From sequence record NZ_CP142098.1: a stretch of DNA of 64,000 bases. The stretch is one strand, 5' to 3'. Origin of the DNA: a plasmid. Of the stretch, positions 4,338 through 32,267 are shown in pieces. The notes below the pieces were generated by a model, which saw nothing but the letters and a program-made list of their open reading frames with translations, made no database searches and had not been told where the DNA came from. Position 1 is the first letter of the stretch. Each line of letters starts with the position of its first letter. A program made the position numbers and the translations under genes.

Positions 4338-4520
4338 GTAATCCTGTAATCCTGTAATCCTGTAATCCTGTAATCCTGTAATCCTGTAATCCTTGGCGGA
4401 TCTCCGATTAGAATCACATAGTTATTTGATTATGTAAATATGTAATCACATGATTTTGTAATCCTGTAATCCTGTAATCCTGTAATTATGAAATCCTATG
4501 ATTTTATGATTCTGTAATCT
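4338..4520. repeat. iteron array: 7 tandem TGTAATCC repeats (4338-4394) plus 4 further copies (4441-4520), candidate centromere/operator for parA-parG
   Basis: Direct 8-bp tandem repeats read in the sequence immediately upstream of the parA start. Confidence 0.8.
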
Positions 4521-5605: not shown

Positions 5606-5999
5606 GGCGACGTTGAGTCGCCAAAAACCAACGATCGGTCGCTTGCAGCCGGCGATGCCGGCGCCGCTTTCACTGCCCGGCCGCTTGTGCGGCCGTTCGC
5701 TAAGGCAGCCAGGCTAAAGGCCTGGCACTTTCTGGTGCATCCCCTCAGGCCCGGCATCCGCGCAGAGAGACTGTCCCCGTGACAGACGCTGAGCCGGGGC
5801 GCCGCCGGCACAAGGGTAAGCGTTGCCGGCGTCCTCACCCGTTCGCACTCCCTTCCTCCCTGCGGTCGTTTGGTCGCTTGCGCTGCGGCCTGCGGCGCCG
5901 CCCTTGTACCGTCAGCTGATACCCCGTCTCGGTCTTGTTGTCACGGCGCCAGGCTCCCCGCGCCGGCGAAAGCCAAAAGGGGAATACACCAGAAAGAAG
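5606..5999 (+). repeat. GC-rich structured leading-region repeat, copy 2 (long form, about 395 bp)
   Basis: Near-identical to copies at 15071-15464 and 20666-21025; contains hairpins GGCGACGTTGAGTCGCC and GCCAGGC-TAAAG-GCCTGGC and the long-range ACAAGGG/CCCTTGT stem; ends 18 nt before the 6017 start. Confidence 0.8.
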
Positions 6000-18880: not shown

Positions 18881-19110
18881 ATGTCAGGCAGACCACGGAT
18901 GCTGGAGCTTCCTCCGGTGGCAGGCCGCTCGCGACCCGCCATCAGCCCTACTCGACTAGCAGTCCGCACGCGGTCAGCAAGTCTCGCCGAACCCGCGTTG
19001 CGGTTTCGGGCCAGTAGGCTAAGGTCTGAAAGCCAAAATCAAGATCGACAACCTACGCTTGCAGCCGGCTATGCCGGCGCCGCTCCCACTGATCGCCCCT
19101 AGGGCGGCGA
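18881..19110 (+). repeat. GC-rich structured leading-region repeat, copy 6 (variant 5' module shared with 20520-20665; related sequence continues to about 19330)
   Basis: GCTTCCTCCGGTG...CTCGACTAGC...GTCTCGCCGAACCCGCGTTGCGGTTTCGGGCCAGT...CGCTTGCAGCCGGC is shared with copy 7; a downstream AAAACAAGG/CCTTGTTTT stem (about 19228-19275) precedes the 19351 ORF. Confidence 0.7.
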
Positions 19111-19350
19111 TCGCTAAGGGCGACCCGTCGTTCCGCCGTGCCGAGGGTGTTCATCCTCATCAATTCCCTGTGGCCATCTCTCTGAGAGTTTTTGCGGAGG
19201 GCTATTCGTAGCGCCATTCCGTTCAAAAAACAAGGTTCTGGCAAGCCACGCCGCAAGCGGCGCCCTTGTTTTTCTCCGGGCCTGTCGCAACTCGGCCCTA
19301 CGCCGCAAAGAACTCGCTGAGATATGGAATCACAAGAGGAATAGACCAGA

Positions 19351-19791
19351 ATGAACCCCGATAACGTCAACGTCAAAACCGCCGCTGCAGAATCTGCCGA
19401 GATATGTGAAAAGGCAGGAATGTGCGAACCAGAGGCCCCAGAGCCGTGGGAAAAGCCCGGCGTGCAATATCCTGCCGCCGTTCGAGCGTTGGAAATGGAG
19501 TTTTGCTATTTAGACGATCTGAATGACCTGTATGCGCAAAGCAGCACGTCACCCGACGAGCTGGAGCAGGCGCTCTATGTGATTTTCGGCCGGATGACTG
19601 AGCTTGTCCAAAGCTGTGGTGCTGATTATAAGCAGCCGGACAAACCGCGAGTTGCCTACGAAATGATCCAATATTGGGTCAGAGCGCAACGGGTCGCACA
19701 GCGTGACTACGGGGAGATCGGTCAGCGCGCCTGGGAGCATGCACGTTACAGACTGGCGCAAGAGATGGCAGTGGAGTATTCGTACAACTGA
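19351..19791 (+). CDS. hypothetical acidic protein (146 aa)
   Basis: ORF with SD AGGAATAG; no recognised motif. Confidence 0.45.
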   Translation: MNPDNVNVKTAAAESAEICEKAGMCEPEAPEPWEKPGVQYPAAVRALEMEFCYLDDLNDLYAQSSTSPDELEQALYVIFGRMTELVQSCGADYKQPDKPRVAYEMIQYWVRAQRVAQRDYGEIGQRAWEHARYRLAQEMAVEYSYN

Positions 19792-19812
19792 CAAGCTGGA
19801 CGATTTTTATCA

Positions 19813-19872
19813 AAAAGACCTGTTAACAGGTCTTTTTGGTGGTATAATAAGACCACTTAACAGGTCTTATTA
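19813..19872 (+). promoter_or_regulatory. promoter/operator of the TA operon: perfect palindrome AAAAGACCTGTTAACAGGTCTTTT, -10 TATAAT (19842-19847), second imperfect palindrome TAAGACCACTTAACAGGTCTTA
   Basis: Palindromes and the -10 element read directly; a typical Phd/YefM autoregulatory layout. Confidence 0.6.
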
Positions 19873-19885
19873 AGTCGAGGATACC

Positions 19886-20137
19886 ATGCCAAATATCATT
19901 CTGAGTGACACAAGTGCGAGCATCAGCGAGCTGAAGAAAAACCCAATGGAAACCGTTGGCGCCGGCGCCGGGTTTCCGGTGGCCATACTGAACCGCAATA
20001 AGCCAGAATTTTATTGCGTGCCGGCGGCGCTCTACGAGCAAATGCTCGATGCCCTCGATGATCAGGAGCTGGTGAAATTGGTCAATGAGCGTCGTAGCGA
20101 AGCGCTGGTTGATATCGATCTGGATCAGTTCGCATGA
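19886..20137 (+). CDS. Phd/YefM-family antitoxin
   Basis: 83 aa; N-terminal ...ISELKKNPMETV...VAILNRNKPEFYCVPAALYEQMLDALDD fits the Phd/YefM fold pattern; 4-nt ATGA overlap with the toxin gene. Confidence 0.7.
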   Translation: MPNIILSDTSASISELKKNPMETVGAGAGFPVAILNRNKPEFYCVPAALYEQMLDALDDQELVKLVNERRSEALVDIDLDQFA

Positions 20138-20421
20138 CGTATACGGTCAAATTTCGTGAGTCGGCGCTGAAAGAGTGGGGCAAGCTGGACAAATCGCTGC
20201 AGCAGCAGTTCGCCAAAAAGCTGAAAAAATGCTGCGAGAACCCGCATATTCCGTCAGCAAAACTGCGGGGGATGCCGGGATGTTACAAAATCAAGCTGCG
20301 CGCCTCGGGGTTTCGTCTGGTTTACGAAGTGATCGACGATTGCCTGATTATCGCGGTGGTTGCCGTCGGCAAACGTGAGCGCGGCGATGTGTACCAGCTG
20401 GCCAGTGAACGTCTTAAATAA
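20134..20421 (+). CDS. relE: RelE/ParE-superfamily toxin
   Basis: 95 aa; MTYTVKFRESALKEWGKLDKSLQQQFAKKLKKCCENPH...LRGMPGCYKIKLRASGFRLVYEVIDDCLIIAVVAVGKRER matches the RelE/StbE pattern. Confidence 0.75.
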   Translation: MTYTVKFRESALKEWGKLDKSLQQQFAKKLKKCCENPHIPSAKLRGMPGCYKIKLRASGFRLVYEVIDDCLIIAVVAVGKRERGDVYQLASERLK

Positions 20422-20519
20422 AAAACCATGCAGGCAATTGGCCTGCATTAATCTCACTGCGGATAATAACGAGAATTTACTGTCGTACAGGCAGATGCAT
20501 TAAAATTAAGCTATGAGCT

Positions 20520-21025
20520 TCCTCCGGTGTCTGGCCGCACGCGTCCAGCCATCAGCCCAACTCGACTAGCCGCCCGCCTGCGGTCGTCAAGTCTCGCCGA
20601 ACCCGCGTTGCGGTTTCGGGCCAGTCGGCTATGGTCTGAAAGCCAACTGCAACATCAAAGACTAGCGCTTGCAGCCGGCGATGCCGGCGCCGCTTTGACT
20701 GCCCGCCCGCTAATGCGGCCGTTCGCTAAGGCAGCCAGGCTAAAGGCCTGGCACTTTCTGGTGTATCCCCTCATGCCCGGCATCCGCGCAGAGAGACTGT
20801 CCCCGTGACAGACGCTGAGCCGGGGCGCCGCCGGCACAAGGGTACGCGTTGCCGGCGTCCTCACCCGTTCGCACTCCCTTCCTCCCTGCGGTCGTTTGGT
20901 CGCTTGCGCTGCGGCCTGCGGCGCCGCCCTTGTACCGTCAGCTGATACCCCGTCTCGGTCTTGTTGTCACGGCGCCAGGCTCCCCGCGCCGGCGAAAGCC
21001 AAAAGGGGAATACACCAGAAAGAAG
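20520..21025 (+). repeat. GC-rich structured leading-region repeat, copy 7 (composite: copy-6-type 5' module plus long form)
   Basis: 20520-20665 matches 18881-19050; 20666-21025 matches copies 2 and 5; ends about 35 nt before the 21059 ORF. Confidence 0.8.
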
Positions 21026-21058
21026 CCGTTGCGGCTTCTGAGTTACTGACTAACGGGA

Positions 21059-21523
21059 GTGGTTATGTCAACGATCGAGCAACAGCAGCAACAACAAATG
21101 GTTTTTTATATTCCGGGAACAACGTGGCCACTGGATGTCGCAATCTGGCTGGAAGATCGCTTTGTCACGTCGTCAGGCAAAACGCTTGAACAGCTACAGC
21201 AGCGTAATCCTGCATGTGTTCTGGTGTCGTATGAAGAAGCGAAGCGCGGGATGTATGAGGCCGCAAGTCTGCCTGTCCGTCGTATCAGCAAAGATGAGTA
21301 CATGGACAAGTTGGAGATGTTGCCGCCGCTCGATTGGAAGTATTTTGATGGCCAAGAATCTTTCAAGATGATGGAAATGTATTGCGGGAATATTACCGAT
21401 ATTTTCGCCCAGCTTGGCAATAGCTATTTTGCGATGCGCGATCATGTTTCGTTACCACATGCTGAGATCATGCAGCGTGTGCGTACATTTATAGATGCCG
21501 AGTCTGCGGCCGTAGCAGCCTGA
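21059..21523 (+). CDS. hypothetical protein (154 aa)
   Basis: ORF immediately after repeat copy 7; no recognised motif. Confidence 0.45.
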   Translation: MVMSTIEQQQQQQMVFYIPGTTWPLDVAIWLEDRFVTSSGKTLEQLQQRNPACVLVSYEEAKRGMYEAASLPVRRISKDEYMDKLEMLPPLDWKYFDGQESFKMMEMYCGNITDIFAQLGNSYFAMRDHVSLPHAEIMQRVRTFIDAESAAVAA

Positions 21524-21580
21524 ATAGTTTCCCTCGGTGTTAGCAACACCGGGGGATCCTCGATAAGAAGGAAATCGACA

Positions 21581-21730
21581 ATGATTATTGATGACTATAT
21601 CGCGGCAATCGGTCGTAAAATTTGGGAACAATGGCAAGAAAATAAACCGGTAATTATTCCAGCTCTTAAAGGTTTTGAGTGGGCACAGTTGCTCCGCTAC
21701 TTAGAACTAAAACGGGGCTATGCGTGTTGA
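21581..21730 (+). CDS. possible small protein (49 aa, below the ORF-track cutoff)
   Basis: ATG at 21581 preceded by AGAAGGAAA; ends TGA at 21728-21730; followed by a strong terminator. Confidence 0.3.
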   Translation: MIIDDYIAAIGRKIWEQWQENKPVIIPALKGFEWAQLLRYLELKRGYAC

Positions 21731-21746
21731 CTCATGATATGAACTG

Positions 21747-21775
21747 AGCCACCCAATTGGGTGGCTTTTTATTTC
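21747..21775 (+). terminator. rho-independent terminator (AGCCACCCAATTGGGTGGCT + TTTTTATTT)
   Basis: Perfect 8-bp stem with a 4-nt loop followed by a T-run. Confidence 0.8.
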
Positions 21776-22185
21776 GGCTGTCGCCTGTCTGCGGCGTCGA
21801 GCCGCTGACAGGCGAACAAAGCGCTTGCAGCGGGCTGAGCCCGCGCCGCTTTTGCAGTTTCCATCAAGATGAAAACTGTAAGGCTATCAGGCTCCGCCTG
21901 ATGTTACGTTTTGGTGTTTCCATTTCCTCTGCGGTGCTTAGCGGCATGTCTTTTGCTGTGACAGACCTTGTGCCGGGGCACCTACATCGCAAGGGTTCGC
22001 TACCGCCGTCCATCCTCGCCCGTTCGCACTCACTCAACGCAGTTTCGTTCGCTTGCGCATGCGGCCTGCGGTGTCGCCCATGCGTTGCAGGTTTATACCC
22101 CGTCACGGTCATTGCGTCACAGCACAAGACGCGCCGCTCCGGCAAAACCGGAATAAATGGCAACACCGAAAACAGACTGAAGGGG
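21776..22185 (+). repeat. GC-rich structured leading-region repeat, copy 8, ending at the SD/start of the DUF932-like gene
   Basis: Core CCTCGCCCGTTCGCACTCACTC...CGCTTGCGCATGCGGCCTGCGG flanked by a CGCAAGGG/CCCATGCG stem. Confidence 0.75.
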
Positions 22186-23013
22186 ATGAATATGAAGCGA
22201 CTGTATAGCGGATTTCGCCAGGCAAATGTGATCCGCCAAACTCGACCATTGACAAATGATGAGTTATTCCGTCACGTACCAAGTGTTTTCTCTGAAGAAA
22301 AACATGCATCACGTAGTGAGCGTTATACCTACATACCAACGATTAATTTGTTGGATAGACTCCGCGAAGAAGGTTTCCATCCATTTTATGCTTGCCAAAC
22401 AAAAGTTCGCGATGATGATAAACGTGGTCACACGCGGCACATGCTAAGGCTTCGTAGAAATGGTTTCGGTCAAAATGATGAGGTTCCTGAGATTATTTTA
22501 CTTAATAGTCACGATGGGAGTAGCAGCTATCAAATGATTCCGGGCATATTTAGATTTGTTTGTAACAACGGTTTAGTGTGCGGCGACACGTTCGGGGAAG
22601 TCCGTGTTCCACACAAAGGGGATGTTGTTGGAAGAGTGATTGATGGTGCTTATGAAGTGCTAAGTTTTTTTGAAAAAGTAACGGATTCTCGTGATGAAAT
22701 GAAGGCGGTTATTCTTGATAAGAACGAGCAACATGTGTTTGCTGATGCCGCATTAGGGTACAAATATTTTGGAGAGCATCAACCAATAACAGCAGAACAG
22801 GTGCTGAGTCCACGACGCTGGCAGGATAAGAAAGATGATTTGTGGACAACGTTTCAAAGGGTGCAAGAAAACATAATAAAAGGTGAAATACCTGGAATCA
22901 GCGCCAACGGAAAGCGAAACAGAACTCGTGCAGTCAATAGCATAACTGGCGATGTAAAGCTCAATAATGCGTTGTGGAAAATGGCAGAAACCATGAAAAA
23001 CCTGAAGTCGTAA
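22186..23013 (+). CDS. DUF932-family protein (YfjQ-like), about 274 aa
   Basis: ILLNSHDGSSSYQMIPGIFRFVCNNGLV matches the conserved LLNSHDGSS block of DUF932 proteins from island/plasmid leading regions; start is the ATG at 22186 or 22192 after AAGGGGA. Confidence 0.65.
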   Translation: MNMKRLYSGFRQANVIRQTRPLTNDELFRHVPSVFSEEKHASRSERYTYIPTINLLDRLREEGFHPFYACQTKVRDDDKRGHTRHMLRLRRNGFGQNDEVPEIILLNSHDGSSSYQMIPGIFRFVCNNGLVCGDTFGEVRVPHKGDVVGRVIDGAYEVLSFFEKVTDSRDEMKAVILDKNEQHVFADAALGYKYFGEHQPITAEQVLSPRRWQDKKDDLWTTFQRVQENIIKGEIPGISANGKRNRTRAVNSITGDVKLNNALWKMAETMKNLKS

Positions 23014-23035
23014 TGATAGGGTTCTGGCGGTTTAA

Positions 23036-23362
23036 ATGCCGCCAGAAATTAAAAATATGAAAAGACAAATTGAATTTAAACGATGCCTTGTTTGCAGTAC
23101 AGAACACTTGACTTATGAAGATAACTTGCTTTTAAGTAAAGCAACAAGTGAAAACTGGGTTTTTGGTTATGACTACGGGTTTGTTATTGATTTATGGAAA
23201 AGACATCATTTTGTTTTGCATGCAAAACGATTCGGATTATCTAAAGATTTCAGAAAATTGATTTTTACTCTTATAAAAAAGTATGAAATAGAAATGATAC
23301 AGTTCGATTGTGATGCTGATATTATAGAAGGAGTTAAGTTGCATAAATCTGACTACTGGTGA
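23036..23362 (+). CDS. hypothetical low-GC protein (108 aa)
   Basis: AT-rich ORF; no recognised motif. Confidence 0.4.
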   Translation: MPPEIKNMKRQIEFKRCLVCSTEHLTYEDNLLLSKATSENWVFGYDYGFVIDLWKRHHFVLHAKRFGLSKDFRKLIFTLIKKYEIEMIQFDCDADIIEGVKLHKSDYW

Positions 23363-23433: not shown

Positions 23434-23748
23434 TCATACCTGTGATGATTCTGTTTTGTTTTTATCTTTGATATGACTATTTCTCTTCTTTCCTGATTTG
23501 ATTGTGCTTGTGTTTTTTATAATTTCATTTATGGCTCTCTCACTGACAACGATTTCACAGCTTTCAAGTGCAGATTTGATATCTTTTGCTGTGTAACCTT
23601 TTTGCGTTGCTAGCGATATGATCTGTCCCTTAAGTTCATCCAAAACTTCCTTGGAACTTAATCTCTCTTTGCTCAAGTCCGGCAACTCTGTTAGAGCTAC
23701 TTTTGCCAACTCAACTTGTTCTTGACTGTATTGGTTCTTAGCCGCCAT
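23434..23748 (-). CDS. hypothetical low-GC protein (104 aa)
   Basis: AT-rich ORF, the only minus-strand gene in the leading block; no recognised motif. Confidence 0.4.
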   Translation of the reverse strand: MAAKNQYSQEQVELAKVALTELPDLSKERLSSKEVLDELKGQIISLATQKGYTAKDIKSALESCEIVVSERAINEIIKNTSTIKSGKKRNSHIKDKNKTESSQV

Positions 23749-23894
23749 TTCTCTTTCCTGTGTTAGTCATCAATCAACATTGTGTATCAATGATATACGT
23801 CAGCGTCATCATGACACAACAGGCAAATTTGTTCTCCCATGGTGTAATGACAATCCAGGCAAAGTAGGCCATAATACGCTAGTCCGGTCTCAAA

Positions 23895-23950
23895 CACGGG
23901 ACAGGATATGTTTTGTAGCACCGCCTGCACGCAGTCGGCTCTACAAAACG
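23895..23950 (-). other. candidate origin of transfer: 9-bp inverted repeat GTTTTGTAG (23910-23918) / CTACAAAAC (23941-23949), and on the minus strand 5'-...CTACAAAAC-ATATCCTG|TCCCG-3'
   Basis: The YATCCTG|Y nick-region core of MOBP-type oriTs lies immediately 3' of an inverted repeat, 70-120 nt upstream of the mobC/nikA-like gene; the predicted nick is between + coordinates 23901 and 23902. Confidence 0.55.
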
Positions 23951-24021
23951 TCCTGGTCAGGGCAGAGCCCCGACACCCCACGAGACTGTAAACTGACGAG
24001 ACTGATAGGGATAACATCACC

Positions 24022-24363
24022 ATGAGTAAAAGCGAGCGCCGGAACAGAACAGCCCTGCTGCCCAGCATTCGTTGCTTCCCAGAGGAAAAGTCAGTGATCC
24101 AGGAAAAGGCGACCGCGGCCGGTTTAAGTATCGGGGCGTACATGCTTAAGTGTGGCCTCGGTCGCCGAATCGATGCTCGTTGTGACGTTGAGCTCATCAA
24201 TGAACTACGCCGTTTAGGTGGCCTTCAAAAACACCTCTTCAACGAGGGGAAGGGAAATGTAAGTGATGCTTTCAGCAAGCAGTATTCGGATGTGCTTGTT
24301 GCGATAAAAAAAGCCATCATCGCAATCGATATGGGCATGACCAATGAAGGTGATAAGGCATGA
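24022..24363 (+). CDS. relaxosome accessory protein (MobC/NikA-like, RHH)
   Basis: 113 aa; ...ALLPSIRCFPEEKSVIQEKATAAGLSIGAYML fits the MobC-family RxxxxxRxTPEE...A...G.S.s.Y.R pattern; 4-nt overlap with the relaxase. Confidence 0.7.
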   Translation: MSKSERRNRTALLPSIRCFPEEKSVIQEKATAAGLSIGAYMLKCGLGRRIDARCDVELINELRRLGGLQKHLFNEGKGNVSDAFSKQYSDVLVAIKKAIIAIDMGMTNEGDKA

Positions 24364-26288
24364 TTCCTATCGTTCCTGAGAAGCGAAGAGATGGCCGCTC
24401 CAGCTTCATTCAGTTGGTCAGTTATCTGACTCTGCGCGATGAGGATAAGCCTGATTTGCCTATCTCTCCTGAGAATCCCTATGTTCGTCCATCGCGTTCA
24501 AAGGCTGCAATCTTTGACCGCCTGGTAGGGTATCTTGATCGTAATGCTGGGGGGGGTCAGCAGACCCTTTTGGCTATGTTTGCAGACGGTACGCAGCAGG
24601 TTAAATCAGGCGAAGTGGTGTGTGAAACGAACTGCTTCAGTCTGGAAACTGCATCGGCGGAGATGAACGCCGTGGCTATGCAGAACACTCGCTGCGTCGA
24701 CCCGGTTTATCACTGTATTCTTTCGTGGCGTGAAGAGGACACTCCGACCGATCAGCAAATTTTCGAGAGTGCGCGTTATTGCATTAATCAGCTGGGAATG
24801 GCTGATCATCAGTACGTGTTTGCTGTCCATCGAGACACCGATAACGTCCATTGCCATATCGCGGTTAATCGTATCCATCCCGAGTCCTATCGTGCGGCTA
24901 ACATGTATAAAGATGTCGACACACTTCACAAAGCCTGTCGTCATCTTGAGTTGAAGCATGGGTTTACACCTGATAATGGTGCATGGAAAGTAAATGAACA
25001 TCAGCAGGTTGTTCGTAGCCAAAATGAATTCAAATGTATCCCACGTAAGGCTCGGCAGCTGGAGTATTATGCCGACTCAGAAAGCCTCTTTAGTTATGCT
25101 GTAGGTGAATGCCGTCAAGCGATTGGCGACATCATGGCAGATCCTGAACGCCTATCCTGGCAGAACCTCCATAATGAATTGAATCGTGCAGGCCTTGTAT
25201 TGAAACAAAAGGGGGAAGGGTTAGCCATCTACTCGATTCAGGATTCGAGCTTGCCTCCTATTAAGGCAAGCGGCTTGCATCCTGATCTTACACGTTCCTG
25301 CATGGAACCGTATTTGGGGGAGTTCACTTCCGCGCTTGATGTTGACGCTGTGGCATCTCCTAAGCATCCAGAATACGTATATGACCCGCGTTTCCACGCA
25401 CGCGATCTGATGGCTCGGGTTGAACGTCGCCAGGCTAGGGCTGAAGCAAGAGCAGATCTTAAAGCCCGTTATCAGGCGTACAAATCGGCATGGGTTCGTC
25501 CAAAATTGGATGCTGATGAAATCAAAGCCAGGTATAAAAACATGTCCAAACGTTTTGCCTGGCGTAAGGCTAAAGCACGCGTTGAATTACGCGATCCCCT
25601 TTTGAGAAAACTGACTTATCACATTATTGAAGTTGAGCGGATGAAGGCTATGGCCGCATTGCGATTGGCCATCAAGGAAGAACGACAGGCGTTCAAAGCT
25701 GCTCCGGAAAACCGACGTCTGTCATATAGAGGTTGGGTTGAACAACAGGCGTTGATGCACGATCAGGCCGCAATTGCTCAGTTGCGTGGATGGTCCTATA
25801 GATTGAAACGCTCATCCCTGACTCCTAGCGTTTCTTTGAACGGGATCCGTTTCGCGGTATCGGATGACAGCAAACCATTAGCCATAGACGGTTACCAGAC
25901 CCGAATCATGCGAGACGGTGTTGTTCAGTATGTTCAGAATGGGGTTGTTCAATTGCAGGATCGTGGTGAGCGCATTGAGGTTGCCGATTCACAGGTTATG
26001 GATGGGCAGCACATTATTACCGGGCTGGTGATAGCGCAGAGTAAATCGGGTGAGGAGATGGTACTGGAGGGCGATCGTCAATATGTCCAACAATCTTGCG
26101 AACTTGTCTCTTGGTTTAATGAAGAGTCAGGAACCTCCCTGCCATTAACAGAAACCAGTCAAAGAACGCTTGCAGGGTATGGATCATTGCCAACCGAAAA
26201 TTCTCACGGAGCAACTGATTCTAGTGTTAACGAGCAGCGTGAACTGGATGGTTATATCCAGCGGCCAAATGGTCCTCGTCCACACTAA
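24360..26288 (+). CDS. conjugative relaxase, MOBP-type (642 aa)
   Basis: Relaxase motif III VHRDTDNVHCHIAVNRIHPE (HxDxxxxHxHxxxN) in the N-terminal domain; gene order accessory-relaxase next to the oriT candidate. Confidence 0.85.
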   Translation: MIPIVPEKRRDGRSSFIQLVSYLTLRDEDKPDLPISPENPYVRPSRSKAAIFDRLVGYLDRNAGGGQQTLLAMFADGTQQVKSGEVVCETNCFSLETASAEMNAVAMQNTRCVDPVYHCILSWREEDTPTDQQIFESARYCINQLGMADHQYVFAVHRDTDNVHCHIAVNRIHPESYRAANMYKDVDTLHKACRHLELKHGFTPDNGAWKVNEHQQVVRSQNEFKCIPRKARQLEYYADSESLFSYAVGECRQAIGDIMADPERLSWQNLHNELNRAGLVLKQKGEGLAIYSIQDSSLPPIKASGLHPDLTRSCMEPYLGEFTSALDVDAVASPKHPEYVYDPRFHARDLMARVERRQARAEARADLKARYQAYKSAWVRPKLDADEIKARYKNMSKRFAWRKAKARVELRDPLLRKLTYHIIEVERMKAMAALRLAIKEERQAFKAAPENRRLSYRGWVEQQALMHDQAAIAQLRGWSYRLKRSSLTPSVSLNGIRFAVSDDSKPLAIDGYQTRIMRDGVVQYVQNGVVQLQDRGERIEVADSQVMDGQHIITGLVIAQSKSGEEMVLEGDRQYVQQSCELVSWFNEESGTSLPLTETSQRTLAGYGSLPTENSHGATDSSVNEQRELDGYIQRPNGPRPH

Positions 26289-26295
26289 TTTTTTG

Positions 26296-26339
26296 AAAAA
26301 AAAACCGACTGCAGGCCTGATAACCTGAGTCGGCTTTTC
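26296..26339. terminator. bidirectional rho-independent terminator (A-run, CCGACTGCAGG...CCTGAGTCGG hairpin, T-run) between convergent genes
   Basis: Hairpin with flanking A9 and T4 runs, read directly. Confidence 0.65.
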
Positions 26340-27016: not shown

Positions 27017-29197
27017 TTACCCATATCGCTCCTCTCGATGGTGTTCGGACGTAGCGAGAGCCTTCGCTATGTCCTTTGACACTCTTATTGGTTTTGGCGC
27101 CGTAGGTTGTTGTTTCCAACGTCGCTTGTGCAGCTTCAATGCCACCCTGGCGGCTTCAAACAGTAAAATACCGCGTTGTGCTGGCGTATAACTGACGTCT
27201 GCCCGGTGATTAAGATCCAGAGATAGCGCCACTACGCTTTGCAATACAGGGTCCATCAGGCCGTTGCAGGTTGTTTGAGATGGTGGCGATTCCAGGCGTG
27301 TAAGGATGGTTTCGACTTCTTGTGCGGACGGCGGCAGCTTTTTCTTGAGTGTGGGGTTTGCATCCAACAGTTCAGCCTCTGTTGGCATATCTAGGTTCAC
27401 AAACCGGTTGATACGCATTGGCAGTGCTGAAGTCATCTTATCGTCATCTTGGATATAGATGGCATTACTTGGGATCAGTGCGCTTTTGAAAGAGATCATA
27501 CCTTCGCCAGGGTTCATATCTTTCAAATCCCCCAAATCGAGACGGTCCTTTTCCCTAATGACGTTACTGCCAGCATCCTCGAAGTGTGGGGTGATCAGCC
27601 CGCCCTGTTGCTCTACGGCTCCGAGCTCAGAATAGTACCCTTTACCGCCGGTAATCCGTGCAAGTTCGAAGGTATCCTTCTCGTCCTGCAACGTCATGAA
27701 CCACTTTGTCAGTAGGTTGGCGTTTACGGTCATGTACTCGCCCTTGTGCTCGGCGATGAAACGTTGAATGTCCTGTGCAGATACGATGAGCATATAGCCC
27801 AGACTGCGCATCTGGCTTGCCAGATTATCCATGCCAGGACCGAAATAGGCGCCCAGCTCGTCCATGGCGATCGGGAACGGGAAATTTCCTTTGTATTTTT
27901 TGACGATCAACACATCGTTCATCATGCCCTCAAGCTCAAACCCCAAATCTCTGGCCATGGTCATGCGTATCGCCGAAATGTAGAGTTTGCCAATATTGGC
28001 AGCTTCGCCTTTAGATAACTCCAACGCAGGAATTGTGGTGCAGAGGATGCGGTCGTTATGCAGAACGTCCTCAATATCGACGTCGCCGGCGTCAGTAGAA
28101 AAAATATGGCCGTAGAGATCGTTAAACATGGTCAGCATGCGGTTGAATTGCTGAATGAGGTAGCCATGCTGGTCGTAAACCCCTTGTTCCCACTCAGAGG
28201 GGCGGCTGATCAGTTCGATTCTAAAGCCTGCCAGAGTGTTGAAGTAGTTCTCCAGCGGGTTATAAGCCTCCTGATGCCAACCATCTCTTTTAGCTTCCAG
28301 ATAAAGCTCCGCCAGTTTTCTCAGCGGTAAGTATTCCTGAATGACCCTTTGCGAGATCCGCCGCTTTTCGCGTTTGCACTTGTAGTAAACGGCATATACC
28401 AAAGCGGCAAGCATTGATTTGGCCTTGTCTTGCCAGCCTTGGTCGCCGCTGCCGGCAGGCGGCAACATGGATTCCATCAACTGAATGATGAACGTTGTGT
28501 TGGCAGTACCGAATAGATTTATGGTGTTCGAGGGCTGTCGCTTTTTGTCATTGAGCAGCAGCTGCAGCAGCTTGTCGGAACCGCCTGTCATGAAGTTGAG
28601 GACGTAGAAATCATCCTCACGCCCAAAACGGCGTGCGAGTGACCACATGGCAAATGCCAAGGTATTCTGCCCCTTACCATCGGAATAACAGATCCCCCGT
28701 CCCCAACAGATGGCATTGAGGAAGACAGATAACAGCGCTTCTGTTTTTCCGGAACCTGTTGTTGCCAATAGCAACATGTGCCTCAGTGCATCATCGAGTG
28801 TCAACCACAGCTCGCGTGCAAGGGCTTTGCCCCTGGCAAATCCCAGGCACATCACACCGGCCGCGCGCTGGTATTTACGGGTTCGCACCACATAACGGAA
28901 AAATCCGCCAATGCCGTTACGATATTTTGGCATTTCACGTTCTGTAGTCAGATCCATGCCACCTATATCAGTAGGTAAACGGAGCGGCATGCGAAAAGGC
29001 TGATCGCCGAATAGCATCAACTGAAGTAACGCCGCCGGCGTTGTGAGCAGCAATGAAGCAGGTGAATGTATAGCGAGTCCAATGGCGCCGGCGAGAGAAA
29101 GCTGAACGCCTATCGGTGAAAGTAATGCATCTTGAATGATGGTTTGGCCAAGGGGGCGTCGAACTCGACGGACATCGACTTCTACAGGCTGAGACAT
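27017..29197 (-). CDS. type IV coupling protein (VirD4/TrbC-type T4CP, 726 aa)
   Basis: Walker A LLATTGSGKTEAL; N-terminal TM segments; size typical of T4CPs; last gene of the minus-strand transfer operon (trbA-trbB-trbC-like order). Confidence 0.85.
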   Translation of the reverse strand: MSQPVEVDVRRVRRPLGQTIIQDALLSPIGVQLSLAGAIGLAIHSPASLLLTTPAALLQLMLFGDQPFRMPLRLPTDIGGMDLTTEREMPKYRNGIGGFFRYVVRTRKYQRAAGVMCLGFARGKALARELWLTLDDALRHMLLLATTGSGKTEALLSVFLNAICWGRGICYSDGKGQNTLAFAMWSLARRFGREDDFYVLNFMTGGSDKLLQLLLNDKKRQPSNTINLFGTANTTFIIQLMESMLPPAGSGDQGWQDKAKSMLAALVYAVYYKCKREKRRISQRVIQEYLPLRKLAELYLEAKRDGWHQEAYNPLENYFNTLAGFRIELISRPSEWEQGVYDQHGYLIQQFNRMLTMFNDLYGHIFSTDAGDVDIEDVLHNDRILCTTIPALELSKGEAANIGKLYISAIRMTMARDLGFELEGMMNDVLIVKKYKGNFPFPIAMDELGAYFGPGMDNLASQMRSLGYMLIVSAQDIQRFIAEHKGEYMTVNANLLTKWFMTLQDEKDTFELARITGGKGYYSELGAVEQQGGLITPHFEDAGSNVIREKDRLDLGDLKDMNPGEGMISFKSALIPSNAIYIQDDDKMTSALPMRINRFVNLDMPTEAELLDANPTLKKKLPPSAQEVETILTRLESPPSQTTCNGLMDPVLQSVVALSLDLNHRADVSYTPAQRGILLFEAARVALKLHKRRWKQQPTAPKPIRVSKDIAKALATSEHHREERYG

Positions 29198-31542: not shown

Positions 31543-31688
31543 GAATTACTCCAATATGTTTAAACCCAGTCATAAGGAAAATGACTGGGTTTAAACAAGA
31601 GGTTGCACCAAATAGGGATGTTGGAAAAGAAAGAGCGCCTAGAAAGGCGCTCGATAATATGAACTGAGTTGAAAAAATTAAAAATGAG

Positions 31689-32267
31689 TTAATAAGCCAA
31701 AGATTTTTGTTTCACGAACTTGTTGAAAGTGTTGCCTGAGTCTTTTTCTGGTCGATAAGATGATGACAGTAAAGCATCCAACTTGCGACCAAAGTTCATG
31801 CATTTACTTTCCGTTCCTGCACTGATACGGAAGTAGGGGAAATAAACGTCATTAAACTTCAGTGTTAGCATATTTCCATTGCACTCATACCCTGAAAGTT
31901 CGAGTGTCGTCTTTCCTTGGTAAATGGACTCAGTAGTTGACACCAACAACATGGTTCCACTTCTAACGTCAATGCCTAAATATTTACCTGCATCCAAGGT
32001 TTTGAGTTCATACTCATCGGTTGGAGAAAACTCATTGCACTTGAATACCTCGATTACGTTACGTGTTTTTGATTTTGATTTTTCTTGCACTTTCGAAAAT
32101 GCATAAATGAACGTTGCGCCAATTACCAGGAAGATGTAAGGCCACGATGGGTTGCTTCTTGCGTCTGATACGTAAAAAAGAACCATTGAAAAGAGTAGGC
32201 AGCCTACACCAGAGGTTAATGCAAAAAGTAAAAAGAGAGTCCTTAAGTGATTTTGGTATTTCGTCAT
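31689..32267 (-). CDS. small inner-membrane protein (192 aa), candidate entry-exclusion determinant
   Basis: Two N-terminal TM helices; markedly lower GC than neighbours; start overlaps the stop of the DotA/TraY-like gene by 4 nt. The traY-excA / traG-eex synteny argument is inference. Confidence 0.4.
   Translation of the reverse strand: MTKYQNHLRTLFLLFALTSGVGCLLFSMVLFYVSDARSNPSWPYIFLVIGATFIYAFSKVQEKSKSKTRNVIEVFKCNEFSPTDEYELKTLDAGKYLGIDVRSGTMLLVSTTESIYQGKTTLELSGYECNGNMLTLKFNDVYFPYFRISAGTESKCMNFGRKLDALLSSSYRPEKDSGNTFNKFVKQKSLAY

Follow-up and report, generated by a model that had tools for sequence, protein, structure and literature searches.

A probable R64/pCTX-M3-type origin of transfer beside the nikAB genes of a Serratia MPF_I plasmid

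The origins of transfer (oriT) of R64 (IncI1) and ColIb-P9 are built of three parts, in which a long inverted repeat is preceded by an 8-bp hairpin block (GGGGTGTCGGGGC-N3-GCCCTGACCAG) and followed, after 8 nt, by the nick. Initiation requires the inner arm of the R64 repeat and termination requires the repeat in full, according to the passage of a later paper that cites the original work (PMC5863519, citing Furuya & Komano 2000). R64-type oriTs are also found on small plasmids, for example pEC156, which are mobilised by R64 (PMC4743918). In pCTX-M3, an IncM plasmid grouped here with the IncL pOXA-48-like plasmids, a cloned 106-bp segment named pOriT (nucleotides 31,616-31,721) suffices for mobilisation (PMC6112013), and mutation of the nick nonamer abolishes self-transfer (PMC7440800). 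The nic site of this plasmid is ACATCTTG|T, as in IncI1, and two pairs of inverted repeats have been described (PMC8125031). In pCTX-M3, which has no pil genes, the tra operon begins with the oriT and nikAB (PMC6112013, PMC8125031), and the deletion of orf35 derepresses nikA, nikB, and traH 23- to 80-fold (PMC6112013). A wider likeness, which the first-pass annotation of the DNA analysed here had named, is the ATCCTG|Y motif common to IncP, IncI, and Ti oriTs, and it is found in the literature in the part of PMC6414798 that cites Pansegrau and Lanka (1991).

The window, meaning the whole 64-kb stretch of plasmid DNA that was analysed, is a close variant of p14BL03_1, a plasmid of Serratia marcescens; the two share segments that cover about 60.1 of the 64 kb and are 99.2-99.9% identical. 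The annotation of p14BL03_1 lists a complete MPF_I tra/trb/pil set (traH-traY, trbA/B/C, pilL-V) and one relaxase only; no second oriT or relaxase is annotated elsewhere on it. An intergenic site of the window (Table 1) is very probably the cis-acting oriT of a self-transmissible Serratia MPF_I plasmid of the R64 (IncI1) / pCTX-M3 (IncL/M) type. The first-pass annotation had placed a candidate oriT at 23895-23950, and this interpretation is supported by homology, neighbouring genes, orientation, spacing, and covariation. The location stands, while the extent was too small, as the alignment reaches about 23997 and takes in the block at 23956-23979. Judged by alignment, the site is a homologue of both the R64 oriT and the pCTX-M3 oriT, the latter defined by function, beyond a mere likeness of motif. 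The RefSeq versions of the comparison records AF550415, AP005147, and CP032236 were used.

Table 1. Features of the putative oriT and its surroundings, in window coordinates.
Feature	Position	Strand	Remarks
Predicted leading region proper	13356..23362	+	All listed genes on + strand
DUF1281_C gene	within 13356..23362	+	Leading region
Anti-restriction gene	14494-14997	+	Leading region
ParB_N gene	15501-17564	+	Leading region
PsiB gene	17607-18071	+	Leading region
PsiA gene	18062-18832	+	Leading region
Phd/RelE toxin-antitoxin	19886-20421	+	Leading region
DUF932 gene	22159-23013	+	Leading region
DUF5983 gene	23036-23362	+	Leading region
YggA/Orf35 homologue, 104 aa, first leading-side gene	23434..23748	-	41% identity to R64 YggA (3e-22); 39% to pCTX-M3 Orf35 (1e-14)
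Promoter-like hexamers	23817-23790	-	Same pattern scan as next row
Promoter-like site ATGACA-17-CATAAT	23847..23875	+	Pattern match only, weak; would read across nick and repeat into nikA
Approximate full oriT	23895..23997	-	Alignment to the 106-bp pCTX-M3 fragment sufficient for mobilisation
Nick-region core ATATCCTG|T	23901..23909	-	Column-for-column alignment with R64 ACATCCTG|T and pCTX-M3 ACATCTTG|T; predicted nic G23902/T23901
Nick-proximal repeat arm	23910..23928	-	Equivalent of R64 'repeat A', presumed NikA site; perfect part CTACAAAAC 23910-23918
Nick-distal repeat arm	23931..23949	-	Perfect part GTTTTGTAG 23941-23949; covaries with proximal arm
Second hairpin block GGGGTGTCGGGGC-TCT-GCCCTGAC	23956..23979	-	8-bp inverted repeat, invariant G.T
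nikA-like accessory gene, ribbon-helix-helix, 113 aa	24022..24363	+	PF21983 NikA-like 3.4e-20; 42% identity to R64 NikA, E 3e-22
nikB-like MOBP relaxase gene, 642 aa	24360..26288	+	PF03432 4e-33 (MobA/VirD2-type); TraI_middle 3e-12
trbC-like gene, first of trbC-trbB-trbA cluster	27017..29197	-	Convergent with nikAB, as in R64

On the minus strand the elements follow one another as GTTTTGTAG (23949-23941), AGCCGACTGCGTGCAGGCGGTG (22 nt), CTACAAAAC (23918-23910), ATATCCTG (23909-23902), and TCCCG (23901-23897). This direct read-out is exactly the arrangement that had been claimed (GTTTTGTAG-22 nt-CTACAAAAC-ATATCCTG|TCCCG, 23949-23896), and the nick proposed there at 23902/23901 agrees with the mapped coordinates of ATATCCTG and TCCCG. 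The inverted repeat is longer than had been noted, since a repeat search extended it to 19-nt arms with 84% complementarity and a gap of 2 nt; inverted repeats of at least 14 nt with a 9-nt seed number only 16 across the 64-kb window. Folding of the 111-nt strand gave a z-score of -4.9. The conserved GGCGGT falls within the proximal arm, and the second hairpin block, GGGGTGTCGGGGCTCTGCCCTGAC at 23979-23956, is the same as that of R64 and pCTX-M3 except in the loop and falls inside the 106-bp functional oriT of pCTX-M3. The start of nikA lies 120 nt from the predicted nick and 72 nt from the outer edge of the repeat, which makes the earlier figure of about 100 nt upstream of the accessory gene a fair one.

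The short motif is not informative by itself. YATCCTGY is not enriched in the 64-kb window (11 matches against 7.4 +/- 2.6 expected), and as it occurs at chance frequency it was discarded as evidence. The conserved block GGTGTCGGGGCNNNGCCCTGAC, which adjoins the repeat, is present in a single copy in the window where none is expected even with 3 mismatches. The composite site is far beyond chance, given the unique block, the fold z-score, and the homology of the segment to 2,299 plasmid records.

The nick region A(C/T)ATCCTG|TCCCG is common to R64 and this site. The position of the R64 nick is that of a secondary statement in PMC8125031. With pCTX-M3, the window aligns along the whole 106-bp functional fragment, and ATATCCTGT is the stretch corresponding to the pCTX-M3 site given the CGAACTAGT-type mutation. 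The core reads ACATCTTG|T in pCTX-M3 and ATATCCTG|T here, and 6 nt 5' of the nick there is T here against C in R64. The repeat arms diverge further; those of pCTX-M3 are the nearer, with a GTTTT(T)G... core, whereas those of R64 (GCAATTGTAATA / TATTACAATTGC) are unrelated to GTTTTGTAG / CTACAAAAC. As the arms are wholly different, the R64 proteins would probably be inactive on this site, and a specificity different from that of R64 is to be expected. The site appears to work like the R64 oriT but to stand outside the R64 (IncI1 sensu stricto) specificity group, because its arms are unrelated and its NikA is only 42% identical.

The surroundings follow the R64 plan. The gene order is yggA, oriT, nikA nikB, convergent with trbC trbB trbA, and both the R64 oriT and this site are accompanied by an MPF_I T4SS and a thin-pilus pil cluster. 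The accessory gene and relaxase that had been named beside the site, a MobC/NikA-like protein and a MOBP relaxase with HxDxxxxHxHxxxN, are borne out by PF21983, PF03432, and the motif HRDTDNVHCHIAVN. This motif III fits HxDxxxxHxHxxxN and aligns with HTDTDNLHVHVAVN of R64, and the N-terminal LVSY21 tyrosine (motif I) is aligned to LVSY of R64 NikB. Identities to the R64 proteins are 42% for NikA, 35% for NikB (3e-58), and 41% for YggA; the relaxase is also 50% identical to that of pYR4. It differs from R64 NikB in length (642 versus 899 aa) and in having a single middle domain, of which R64 NikB has about three copies. The pCTX-M3 relaxase, at 659 aa, is of similar size and is collinear with it from end to end (35% identity, E 7e-107), and an Orf35 homologue adjoins the oriT in both plasmids. 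The plasmid follows R64 and departs from pCTX-M3 in that nikAB converges with trb and in having pil genes. A comparison of the NikA-like protein with solved structures gave no match at E <= 0.01, which is uninformative as the deposited NikA fragment is short. The YggA/Orf35-like protein is likely a repressor of the nikAB operon; an orthologue of its gene carries the PGAP label 'MobC'.

The conservation of the site could be followed in 29 distinct relatives, which were picked solely by the hairpin block and the nick core, so that the repeat played no part in their selection. The 18-base conserved-block pattern is expected to match about 50 times by chance in 596 Gb, and therefore a nick core was required 30-60 nt downstream of the block in the scan of genome contigs. 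Numerous GC-rich matches (Actinomycetota, Methylobacterium, and others) were removed by this filter. In every one of the 29 relatives, R64 included, the proximal arm stops exactly 8 nt short of the predicted nick, on its 5' side. Changes on both sides were seen in 12 of the 17 repeat pairs. Paired cells made up 90%, compared with 77% after shuffling and 36-48% in slid controls; there were 88 compensatory cells against 30.6 in shuffles, and none of 500 shuffles reached the observed covariation score, a control that overstates significance as the sequences share descent, while the slid-partner control is fairer and still supports the structure. On the ATCCTG strand, G.T wobbles outnumber A.C (55 versus 10), which hints, if weakly, at a role of the hairpin on that strand. 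The second hairpin block is invariant in 29/29 relatives, but the same pattern served to retrieve them; pYR4, found independently of the pattern, has a compensatory variant of it. Likewise, no variation was seen among the 29 sequences in the flanking columns of the nick region (C, A, T, C, G, T, and C), bases which the degenerate motif filter itself fixes.

The working of the site may be proposed after its characterised relatives, from which nicking at this exact bond, the choice of strand, protein binding, action in cis, and a part in termination are all predicted by homology. The NikA-like ribbon-helix-helix protein would bind the nick-proximal arm and place the NikB-like relaxase on the adjoining nick region. 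The relaxase tyrosine would then cleave the G23902/T23901 bond of the minus strand, staying joined to the 5' T. The predicted nicked strand is the template strand of the nikA-nikB operon in the same orientation as in R64 and pCTX-M3, from which the strand and the nick position follow. As the minus strand would be exported 5' to 3', decreasing + coordinates would enter the recipient first. The order of entry would be the YggA-like gene, DUF5983, DUF932, the toxin-antitoxin, PsiA/PsiB, the ParB-like gene, and the anti-restriction gene, with the nikAB operon last. On arrival as single-stranded DNA, the whole of the inverted repeat may refold together with the 8-bp hairpin upstream of it, and so form the signal for termination and rejoining.

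Relaxosome genes are known to lie on the lagging side, and leading-region genes to share one orientation (PMC11541004). The content of the leading side and its uniform + orientation support the proposed polarity. Of the earlier prediction that a block of 4.6-23.9 kb enters first and the relaxase operon last, the direction is upheld by the leading-side genes, whereas the bound at 4.6 kb has no special basis. The leading region also holds repeat copies in direct orientation, upstream of + strand genes, with a long hairpin (z = -3.8). In a blastn comparison with the R64, pOXA-48-like, and other loci, this repeat had no similarity to the R64 leading region, and its homologues were confined to Serratia and Yersinia relatives; hence no link to known Frpo/ssi elements (single-strand promoters) is established.

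The closest clade comprises Yersinia ruckeri pYR3/pYR4 and the pADAP-type Serratia MPF_I plasmids. For example, Y. ruckeri p17Y0412.1 has identical arms and core (84% identity over 191 bp), and pYR4 has a near-identical repeat (GTTTTGTGG...CTACAAAAC-ATACCCTG|TCCC), along with the compensatory variant of the first hairpin and C for T in the core. The two papers on pYR4 make no mention of an oriT or relaxase, and so no oriT is described for this clade in that literature. In PLSDB/MOB-suite, p14BL03_1, pCUVET18-1371.2, and p17Y0412.1 are labelled 'non-mobilizable' with no relaxase or oriT type. This label, together with a nick core one base off that of R64, would suit a decayed or orphaned oriT, a relic on a plasmid no longer transmissible. 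Such decay is very unlikely. The reading frames are unbroken in nikA, in nikB (whose catalytic Tyr and His-triad motifs are in place), and in trbABC, traH-Y, and the pil genes; plasmids typed as conjugative, such as Klebsiella L008, also have the T variant of the core; Serratia, Yersinia, Rahnella, Hafnia, and Xenorhabdus have all kept the module, with compensatory changes; and conjugation of the relative pYR4 has been demonstrated qualitatively (PMC11429247). The label is given to 103 of the 197 plasmids that match an oriT-nikA-nikB query (23700-26300), and it most likely reflects a relaxase too divergent for the MOB-suite reference set. It is tentatively proposed that the Serratia/Yersinia MPF_I plasmids (p14BL03_1, pYR3/pYR4, pADAP-like) may form a third specificity group of R64/IncL-M oriTs, with their own NikA-repeat pairing and a core with T 6 nt 5' of the nick. 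Current typing tools appear to miss such a group, so that on the order of 100 or more complete plasmids would be labelled 'non-mobilizable' though self-transmissible.

A true oriT that is nicked elsewhere, on the + strand, in the loop of the repeat, or at another copy of YATCCTGY, is just as improbable as a relic. Ten further matches to the motif exist in the window and some relaxase families do nick in hairpin loops, but the repeat and the conserved block are absent from all ten other copies, and this MOBP family cuts 8 nt 3' of the repeat on the ATCYTG|T strand (PMC8125031). The spacing is invariant among the 29 relatives, the orientation to nikA is that of R64 and pCTX-M3, and the leading-region genes lie on the side which cutting at G23902/T23901 predicts.

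The site is also intergenic between divergent genes, has promoter-like hexamers at 23847-23875 (+) and 23817-23790 (-), and neighbours a homologue of Orf35, which represses nikA, nikB, and traH in pCTX-M3 (PMC6112013). It could accordingly be read as a transcriptional control region only, in which nikA and the YggA/Orf35-like gene have divergent promoters and an operator, and the repeat is the repressor site. The probability of this reading is slighter still. The pattern scan found promoter-like sites at background (2 versus 1.0 expected), and the same oriT module occurs on plasmids of 1.7-2.7 kb without nikA, nikB, or yggA to regulate. Moreover, the homologous 106-bp segment of pCTX-M3 alone gives mobilisation, and the nick nonamer is needed for self-transfer (PMC6112013, PMC7440800). 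Regulation and oriT function are compatible, and a dual role is likely. A chance meeting of a short inverted repeat with a common heptamer, for which the background rate of YATCCTGY (11 against 7.4) and the sixteen comparable inverted repeats might speak, has a negligible probability and is refuted by the extended homology to 2,299 plasmids, the R64/pCTX-M3 alignment and matching R64 synteny, the conserved core, the block unique in the window, and the covariation of the repeat.

The evidence supports an oriT that is a new, previously unannotated member of a known family and biologically ordinary, with nothing new in mechanism beyond R64 and pCTX-M3. With the oriT and the polarity pinned, this family of Serratia plasmids can be annotated correctly as conjugative. 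The genes predicted to enter first can be named, which include anti-restriction, PsiB/PsiA, and ParB-like genes as well as repeat-preceded genes without known function. A fragment of about 100 bp could serve for mobilisation vectors or for blocking transfer. The 'non-mobilizable' label of PLSDB/MOB-suite is a blind spot that would skew plasmid mobility surveys of Serratia and Yersinia, clinical S. marcescens among them.

Beyond this family, the likeness becomes partial. [quoted passage not shown] The ColE1/pBR322-type bom (MOBP5/HEN) starts with the same block, GGGTGTCGGGGC-N3-GCC(C/A)TGACCCAG, while beyond it the repeat and the nick region are unrelated to those here and the relaxase is a different one (MbeA/MobA). 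Many block matches in the genome scan continue as ...TCACGTAGCGATAGCGGAGTGTATACTGGCTTA, and these we take to be bom from the sequence of pBR322. When nine foreign loci that carry the block were compared with Rfam, no RNA family matched there. The invariant GGGGTGTCGGGGC-N3-GCCCTGAC hairpin with its G.T is common to ColE1-type bom sites and is seen as multi-copy families in distant phyla, and as a bolder conjecture it could be a broadly reused module for the recognition of single-stranded DNA.

The minus strand from 23949 to 23897 reads GTTTTGTAG-AGCCGACTGCGTGCAGGCGGTG-CTACAAAAC-ATATCCTG-TCCCG, which bears out the sequence described in the first-pass annotation, and the scissile bond proposed there, between G23902 and T23901, agrees in position with this reading. 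The near-palindrome is longer than the repeat noted earlier, with 19-nt arms of 84% complementarity separated by 2 nt. Folded as single-stranded DNA, the 111-nt stretch reaches -26.9 kcal/mol (z = -4.9), and none of 200 shuffles folds as well. The motif YATCCTGY by itself has no evidential weight, because the window holds 11 copies against 7.4 +/- 2.6 expected; it is the context that distinguishes the copy at the site.

Searching with a 191-bp query that has the site in its middle yields 2,299 plasmid records, which include IncL pOXA-48-like, IncI-gamma/K and IncB/O/K/Z plasmids, MPF_I plasmids of Klebsiella, Yersinia and Pseudomonas amygdali, and plasmids of 1.7-2.7 kb without an encoded relaxase. 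Alignment reveals a three-part anatomy common to the window, R64, pCTX-M3/pOXA-48 and others, namely an invariant block GGGGTGTCGGGGC-N3-GCCCTGACCAG, a variable inverted repeat, and the nick region CA(C/T)(A/T)TC(C/T)TG^TCC (caret, nick). Nucleotides 31,616-31,721 of pCTX-M3 suffice for mobilisation (PMC6112013), and their aligned counterpart is window ~23,997-23,895. pCTX-M3 loses self-transfer when four bases of its nick nonamer are exchanged, turning ACATCTTGT into CGAACTAGT (PMC7440800). Its nic, ACATCTTG^T, is 'similar to that of the IncI1 plasmids' (PMC8125031), and ATATCCTG^T of the window sits in the same alignment columns.

The invariant block was searched in 185,579 species genomes, and matches followed at 30-60 nt by a motif resembling the nick core were retained; pooled with previously fetched plasmid loci and deduplicated, they gave 29 distinct sequences, the repeat not being a selection criterion. 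In all 29 the proximal arm abuts the 8-nt A(C/T)(A/T)TC(C/T)TG and so lies 8 nt from the nick, a spacing likewise described for R64. The arms are highly diverse (GTTTTGTAG, GTTTTTGGA, GCAATTGTAATA, GTAATCGTATA, TGCATTGTCATTA and others) but still complementary. In the MAFFT alignment of the 29 (A2), fitted to no structure, 90.3% of cells are paired, against 77.3% in shuffles and 36-48% with partners slid 1-3 columns, and 12 of 17 repeat pairs have changes on both sides. Compensatory cells number 88 (shuffles, 30.6 +/- 4.1; slid controls, 14-25) and a covariation score of 0.289 compares with 0.097, with 0/500 shuffles attaining it; as the sequences are related, the shuffle test overstates significance, but the slid controls keep kinship and agree. 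The first hairpin is unvarying in the 29, a set itself selected on that hairpin. In the independently fetched Yersinia ruckeri plasmid pYR4 (L137 15148-15175; NZ_CP032236.1 ~60,150), it reads GTCGGGAC-GGA-GTCCTGAC, a double compensatory change that keeps the G.T, where GTCGGGGC/GCCCTGAC is otherwise unvarying; the nick core of pYR4 is ATACCCTG^T. The strand reading ATCCTG has 55 G.T wobbles against 10 A.C juxtapositions (24 against 10 for the long repeat alone), a modest asymmetry of the kind expected if the hairpins matter on this strand as single-stranded DNA.

The genes around the site are arranged as in R64, where yggA, oriT and nikA nikB are convergent with trbC trbB trbA. The relaxase shares 35% identity with R64 NikB across the nuclease and C-terminal parts (E 3e-58), 35% with pCTX-M3 NikB over the full length (E 7e-107) and 50% with the pYR4 relaxase; its LVSY N-terminal tyrosine and histidine triad HRDTDNVHCHIAVN align with their NikB counterparts. 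The earlier oriT call was correct and precise, as judged from site homology, repeat covariation and the NikA/NikB neighbours. By sequence, the site has every feature of the R64/IncL-M oriT family and should work like the R64 oriT, although it appears to fall outside R64's own specificity group because its repeat arms show no sequence relationship to those of R64 and its NikA shares just 42% identity. The plasmid resembles R64 in its pil genes and in nikAB being convergent with trb, and IncL/M in relaxase size. In the window relaxase, the TraI_middle domain (residues 228-311) matches three stretches of R64 NikB, ~225-341, 344-420 and 472-590 (R64 locus L013 7392-10091 against 24360-26288); the 257 additional residues of NikB therefore look like an internal triplication of this domain, present as about three copies in NikB and a single copy here.

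By analogy with R64 and pCTX-M3, NikA would bind the nick-proximal arm and recruit NikB, which would cut the minus strand between G23902 and T23901. In R64, as summarised in PMC5863519 (citing Furuya & Komano 2000), the inner arm alone is enough for initiation and the whole repeat is required for termination. The repeat covariation and wobble asymmetry fit a similar single-strand hairpin role, which, like the preceding steps, is drawn from these relatives. A nick at another position or on the other strand is improbable, in view of the invariant spacing and the synteny.

A decayed origin is just as hard to sustain. Its sole hint is the 'non-mobilizable' label of PLSDB/MOB-suite, against which every transfer gene is intact, the T core variant is also found in plasmids typed conjugative, and the relative pYR4 conjugates (PMC11429247). 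This label, with no relaxase type, is carried by AP028474.1, NZ_CP115011.1 and NZ_CP084638.1 (loci L002, L001, L005), MPF_I plasmids with an intact NikB-like relaxase and R64-type oriT, and by 103/197 plasmids matching an oriT-nikA-nikB query (23700-26300); pYR4 is typed 'mobilizable' though reported conjugative. The label most likely arises because the typing tool has no such relaxase among its references.

Slightly less probable still is a purely regulatory site, since the homologous pCTX-M3 fragment suffices for mobilisation and the module also occurs on tiny plasmids without the nikA/nikB/yggA genes. An additional regulatory role, compatible with oriT function, is plausible; a weak promoter-like site would read across the nick into nikA. 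The divergent 104-aa gene is homologous to R64 yggA (41%) and pCTX-M3 orf35 (39%). When orf35 is deleted, transcripts of nikA, nikB and traH rise 23- to 80-fold, as does mobilisation by >200-fold (PMC6112013), and the 104-aa gene is therefore probably a local repressor; 'MobC', given in RefSeq to its Serratia nevei orthologue, is a mere name. Chance co-occurrence of repeat and motif is excluded.

The ATCCTG^T strand is the template strand of nikAB in the window, as in R64 and pCTX-M3. Because the relaxase remains attached to the 5' end and the strand leaves 5' to 3' (PMC8125031), decreasing + coordinates should enter first and nikAB last. The genes on the predicted leading side have hallmark leading-region functions and are all on the + strand except the YggA-like gene. 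A leading-region survey likewise places relaxosome genes on the lagging side, adjoining oriT, and finds anti-defence, SOS-inhibition and toxin-antitoxin genes co-oriented, compatible with entering-strand transcription (PMC11541004). The first-pass annotation had the 4.6-23.9 kb block entering first and the relaxase operon last; gene content and orientation support this direction, while the 4.6 kb limit has no particular support.

Features of the window, including those around the candidate oriT and on its predicted leading side
Feature	Position	Strand	Remarks
Octamer GTAATCCT array	4338-4401		~8 copies
Octamer GTAATCCT array	4458-4489		~4 copies
Long repeat copies	5640-5974, 15105-15439, 20515-21000
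Partial repeat copies	13257-13361, 14305-14387, 18905-19119, 21958-22147
Insertion	9019-12917		absent from p14BL03_1
HTH_Tnp_1 ORF	9032-9736		IS66-family element
TnpB_IS66	9733-10080		IS66-family element
DDE_Tnp_IS66	10100-11665		IS66-family element
Pectate lyase gene	11881-12819		PF00544, 5e-61
Anti-restriction protein	14494-14997	+	predicted leading side
ParB_N protein	15501-17564	+	predicted leading side
PsiB	17607-18071	+	predicted leading side
PsiA	18062-18832	+	predicted leading side
Phd/RelE	19886-20421	+	predicted leading side
DUF932	22159-23013	+	predicted leading side
DUF5983	23036-23362	+	predicted leading side
104-aa gene	23434-23748	-	borders candidate site, divergent
Promoter-like site	23847-23875	+
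Repeat arms	23910-23928 / 23931-23949
Invariant block	23979-23953
nikA-like gene	24022-24363	+	Pfam NikA-like, 3e-20; next after candidate site
Relaxase gene	24360-26288	+	MobA/VirD2 nuclease domain, 4e-33
Small reverse ORF			between relaxase gene and trbC
trbC, trbB, trbA			beyond small reverse ORF; convergent with relaxase operon

The window closely matches the Serratia marcescens plasmid p14BL03_1 (AP028474.1), with 99.9% identity across the oriT-relaxase region and 99.2-99.9% in three long common segments (~60.1 of 64 kb); it differs by a 3.9-kb insertion and a ~0.9-kb deletion. p14BL03_1 has exactly one relaxase and a complete MPF_I (type IVB) set of traH-traY, trbA/B/C and an R64-type thin-pilus pil cluster. 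The nearest relatives are the Serratia and Yersinia MPF_I plasmids pCUVET18-1371.2, p17Y0412.1, pYR4 and pADAP-like plasmids; no mention of an oriT or relaxase was found in two published descriptions of pYR4. The site is thus an ordinary finding, a previously unannotated, very probable oriT of a well-known family, and its chief practical value lies in helping to annotate this Serratia/Yersinia clade and to type its mobility more accurately.

The predicted leading region also carries a family of direct repeats, all in the same orientation, with long copies 95-98% alike. Most precede a + strand gene (e.g. ParB-like, 154-aa ORF, DUF932, 146-aa ORF), and one copy forms a long hairpin as single-stranded DNA (z = -3.8). 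These repeats may be single-strand promoters of the Frpo/ssi kind; blastn found no similarity to the R64 leading region. The ~0.9 kb of p14BL03_1 (AP028474.1 46251-47147) is missing at window ~20457-20465, and since the gap sits at a repeat edge, loss by recombination between repeat copies is suggested.

The block GGGGTGTCGGGGC-N3-GCCCTGAC presumably also starts ColE1/pBR322-type bom sites (ColE1-like loci L019, L028, L048, L102, L108 and others). Distant phyla also have it, in families of several copies whose flanks are conserved within each family, at loci of Planctomycetota (L026, L047, L049, L082, L084, L094), Methylobacterium (L015, L018, L023, L052, L062) and Clostridia MAGs (L041, L043, L054, L124). 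Some single matches are expected by chance, at ~50 per 596 Gb. An Rfam search of nine foreign loci with the block found no family at its position. Within the insertion, the pectate lyase accompanying the IS66-family element is an unexpected cargo on a plasmid of clinical-type Serratia. The octamer arrays adjoin a resolvase-like ORF and could be an iteron, centromere or res-type binding array.
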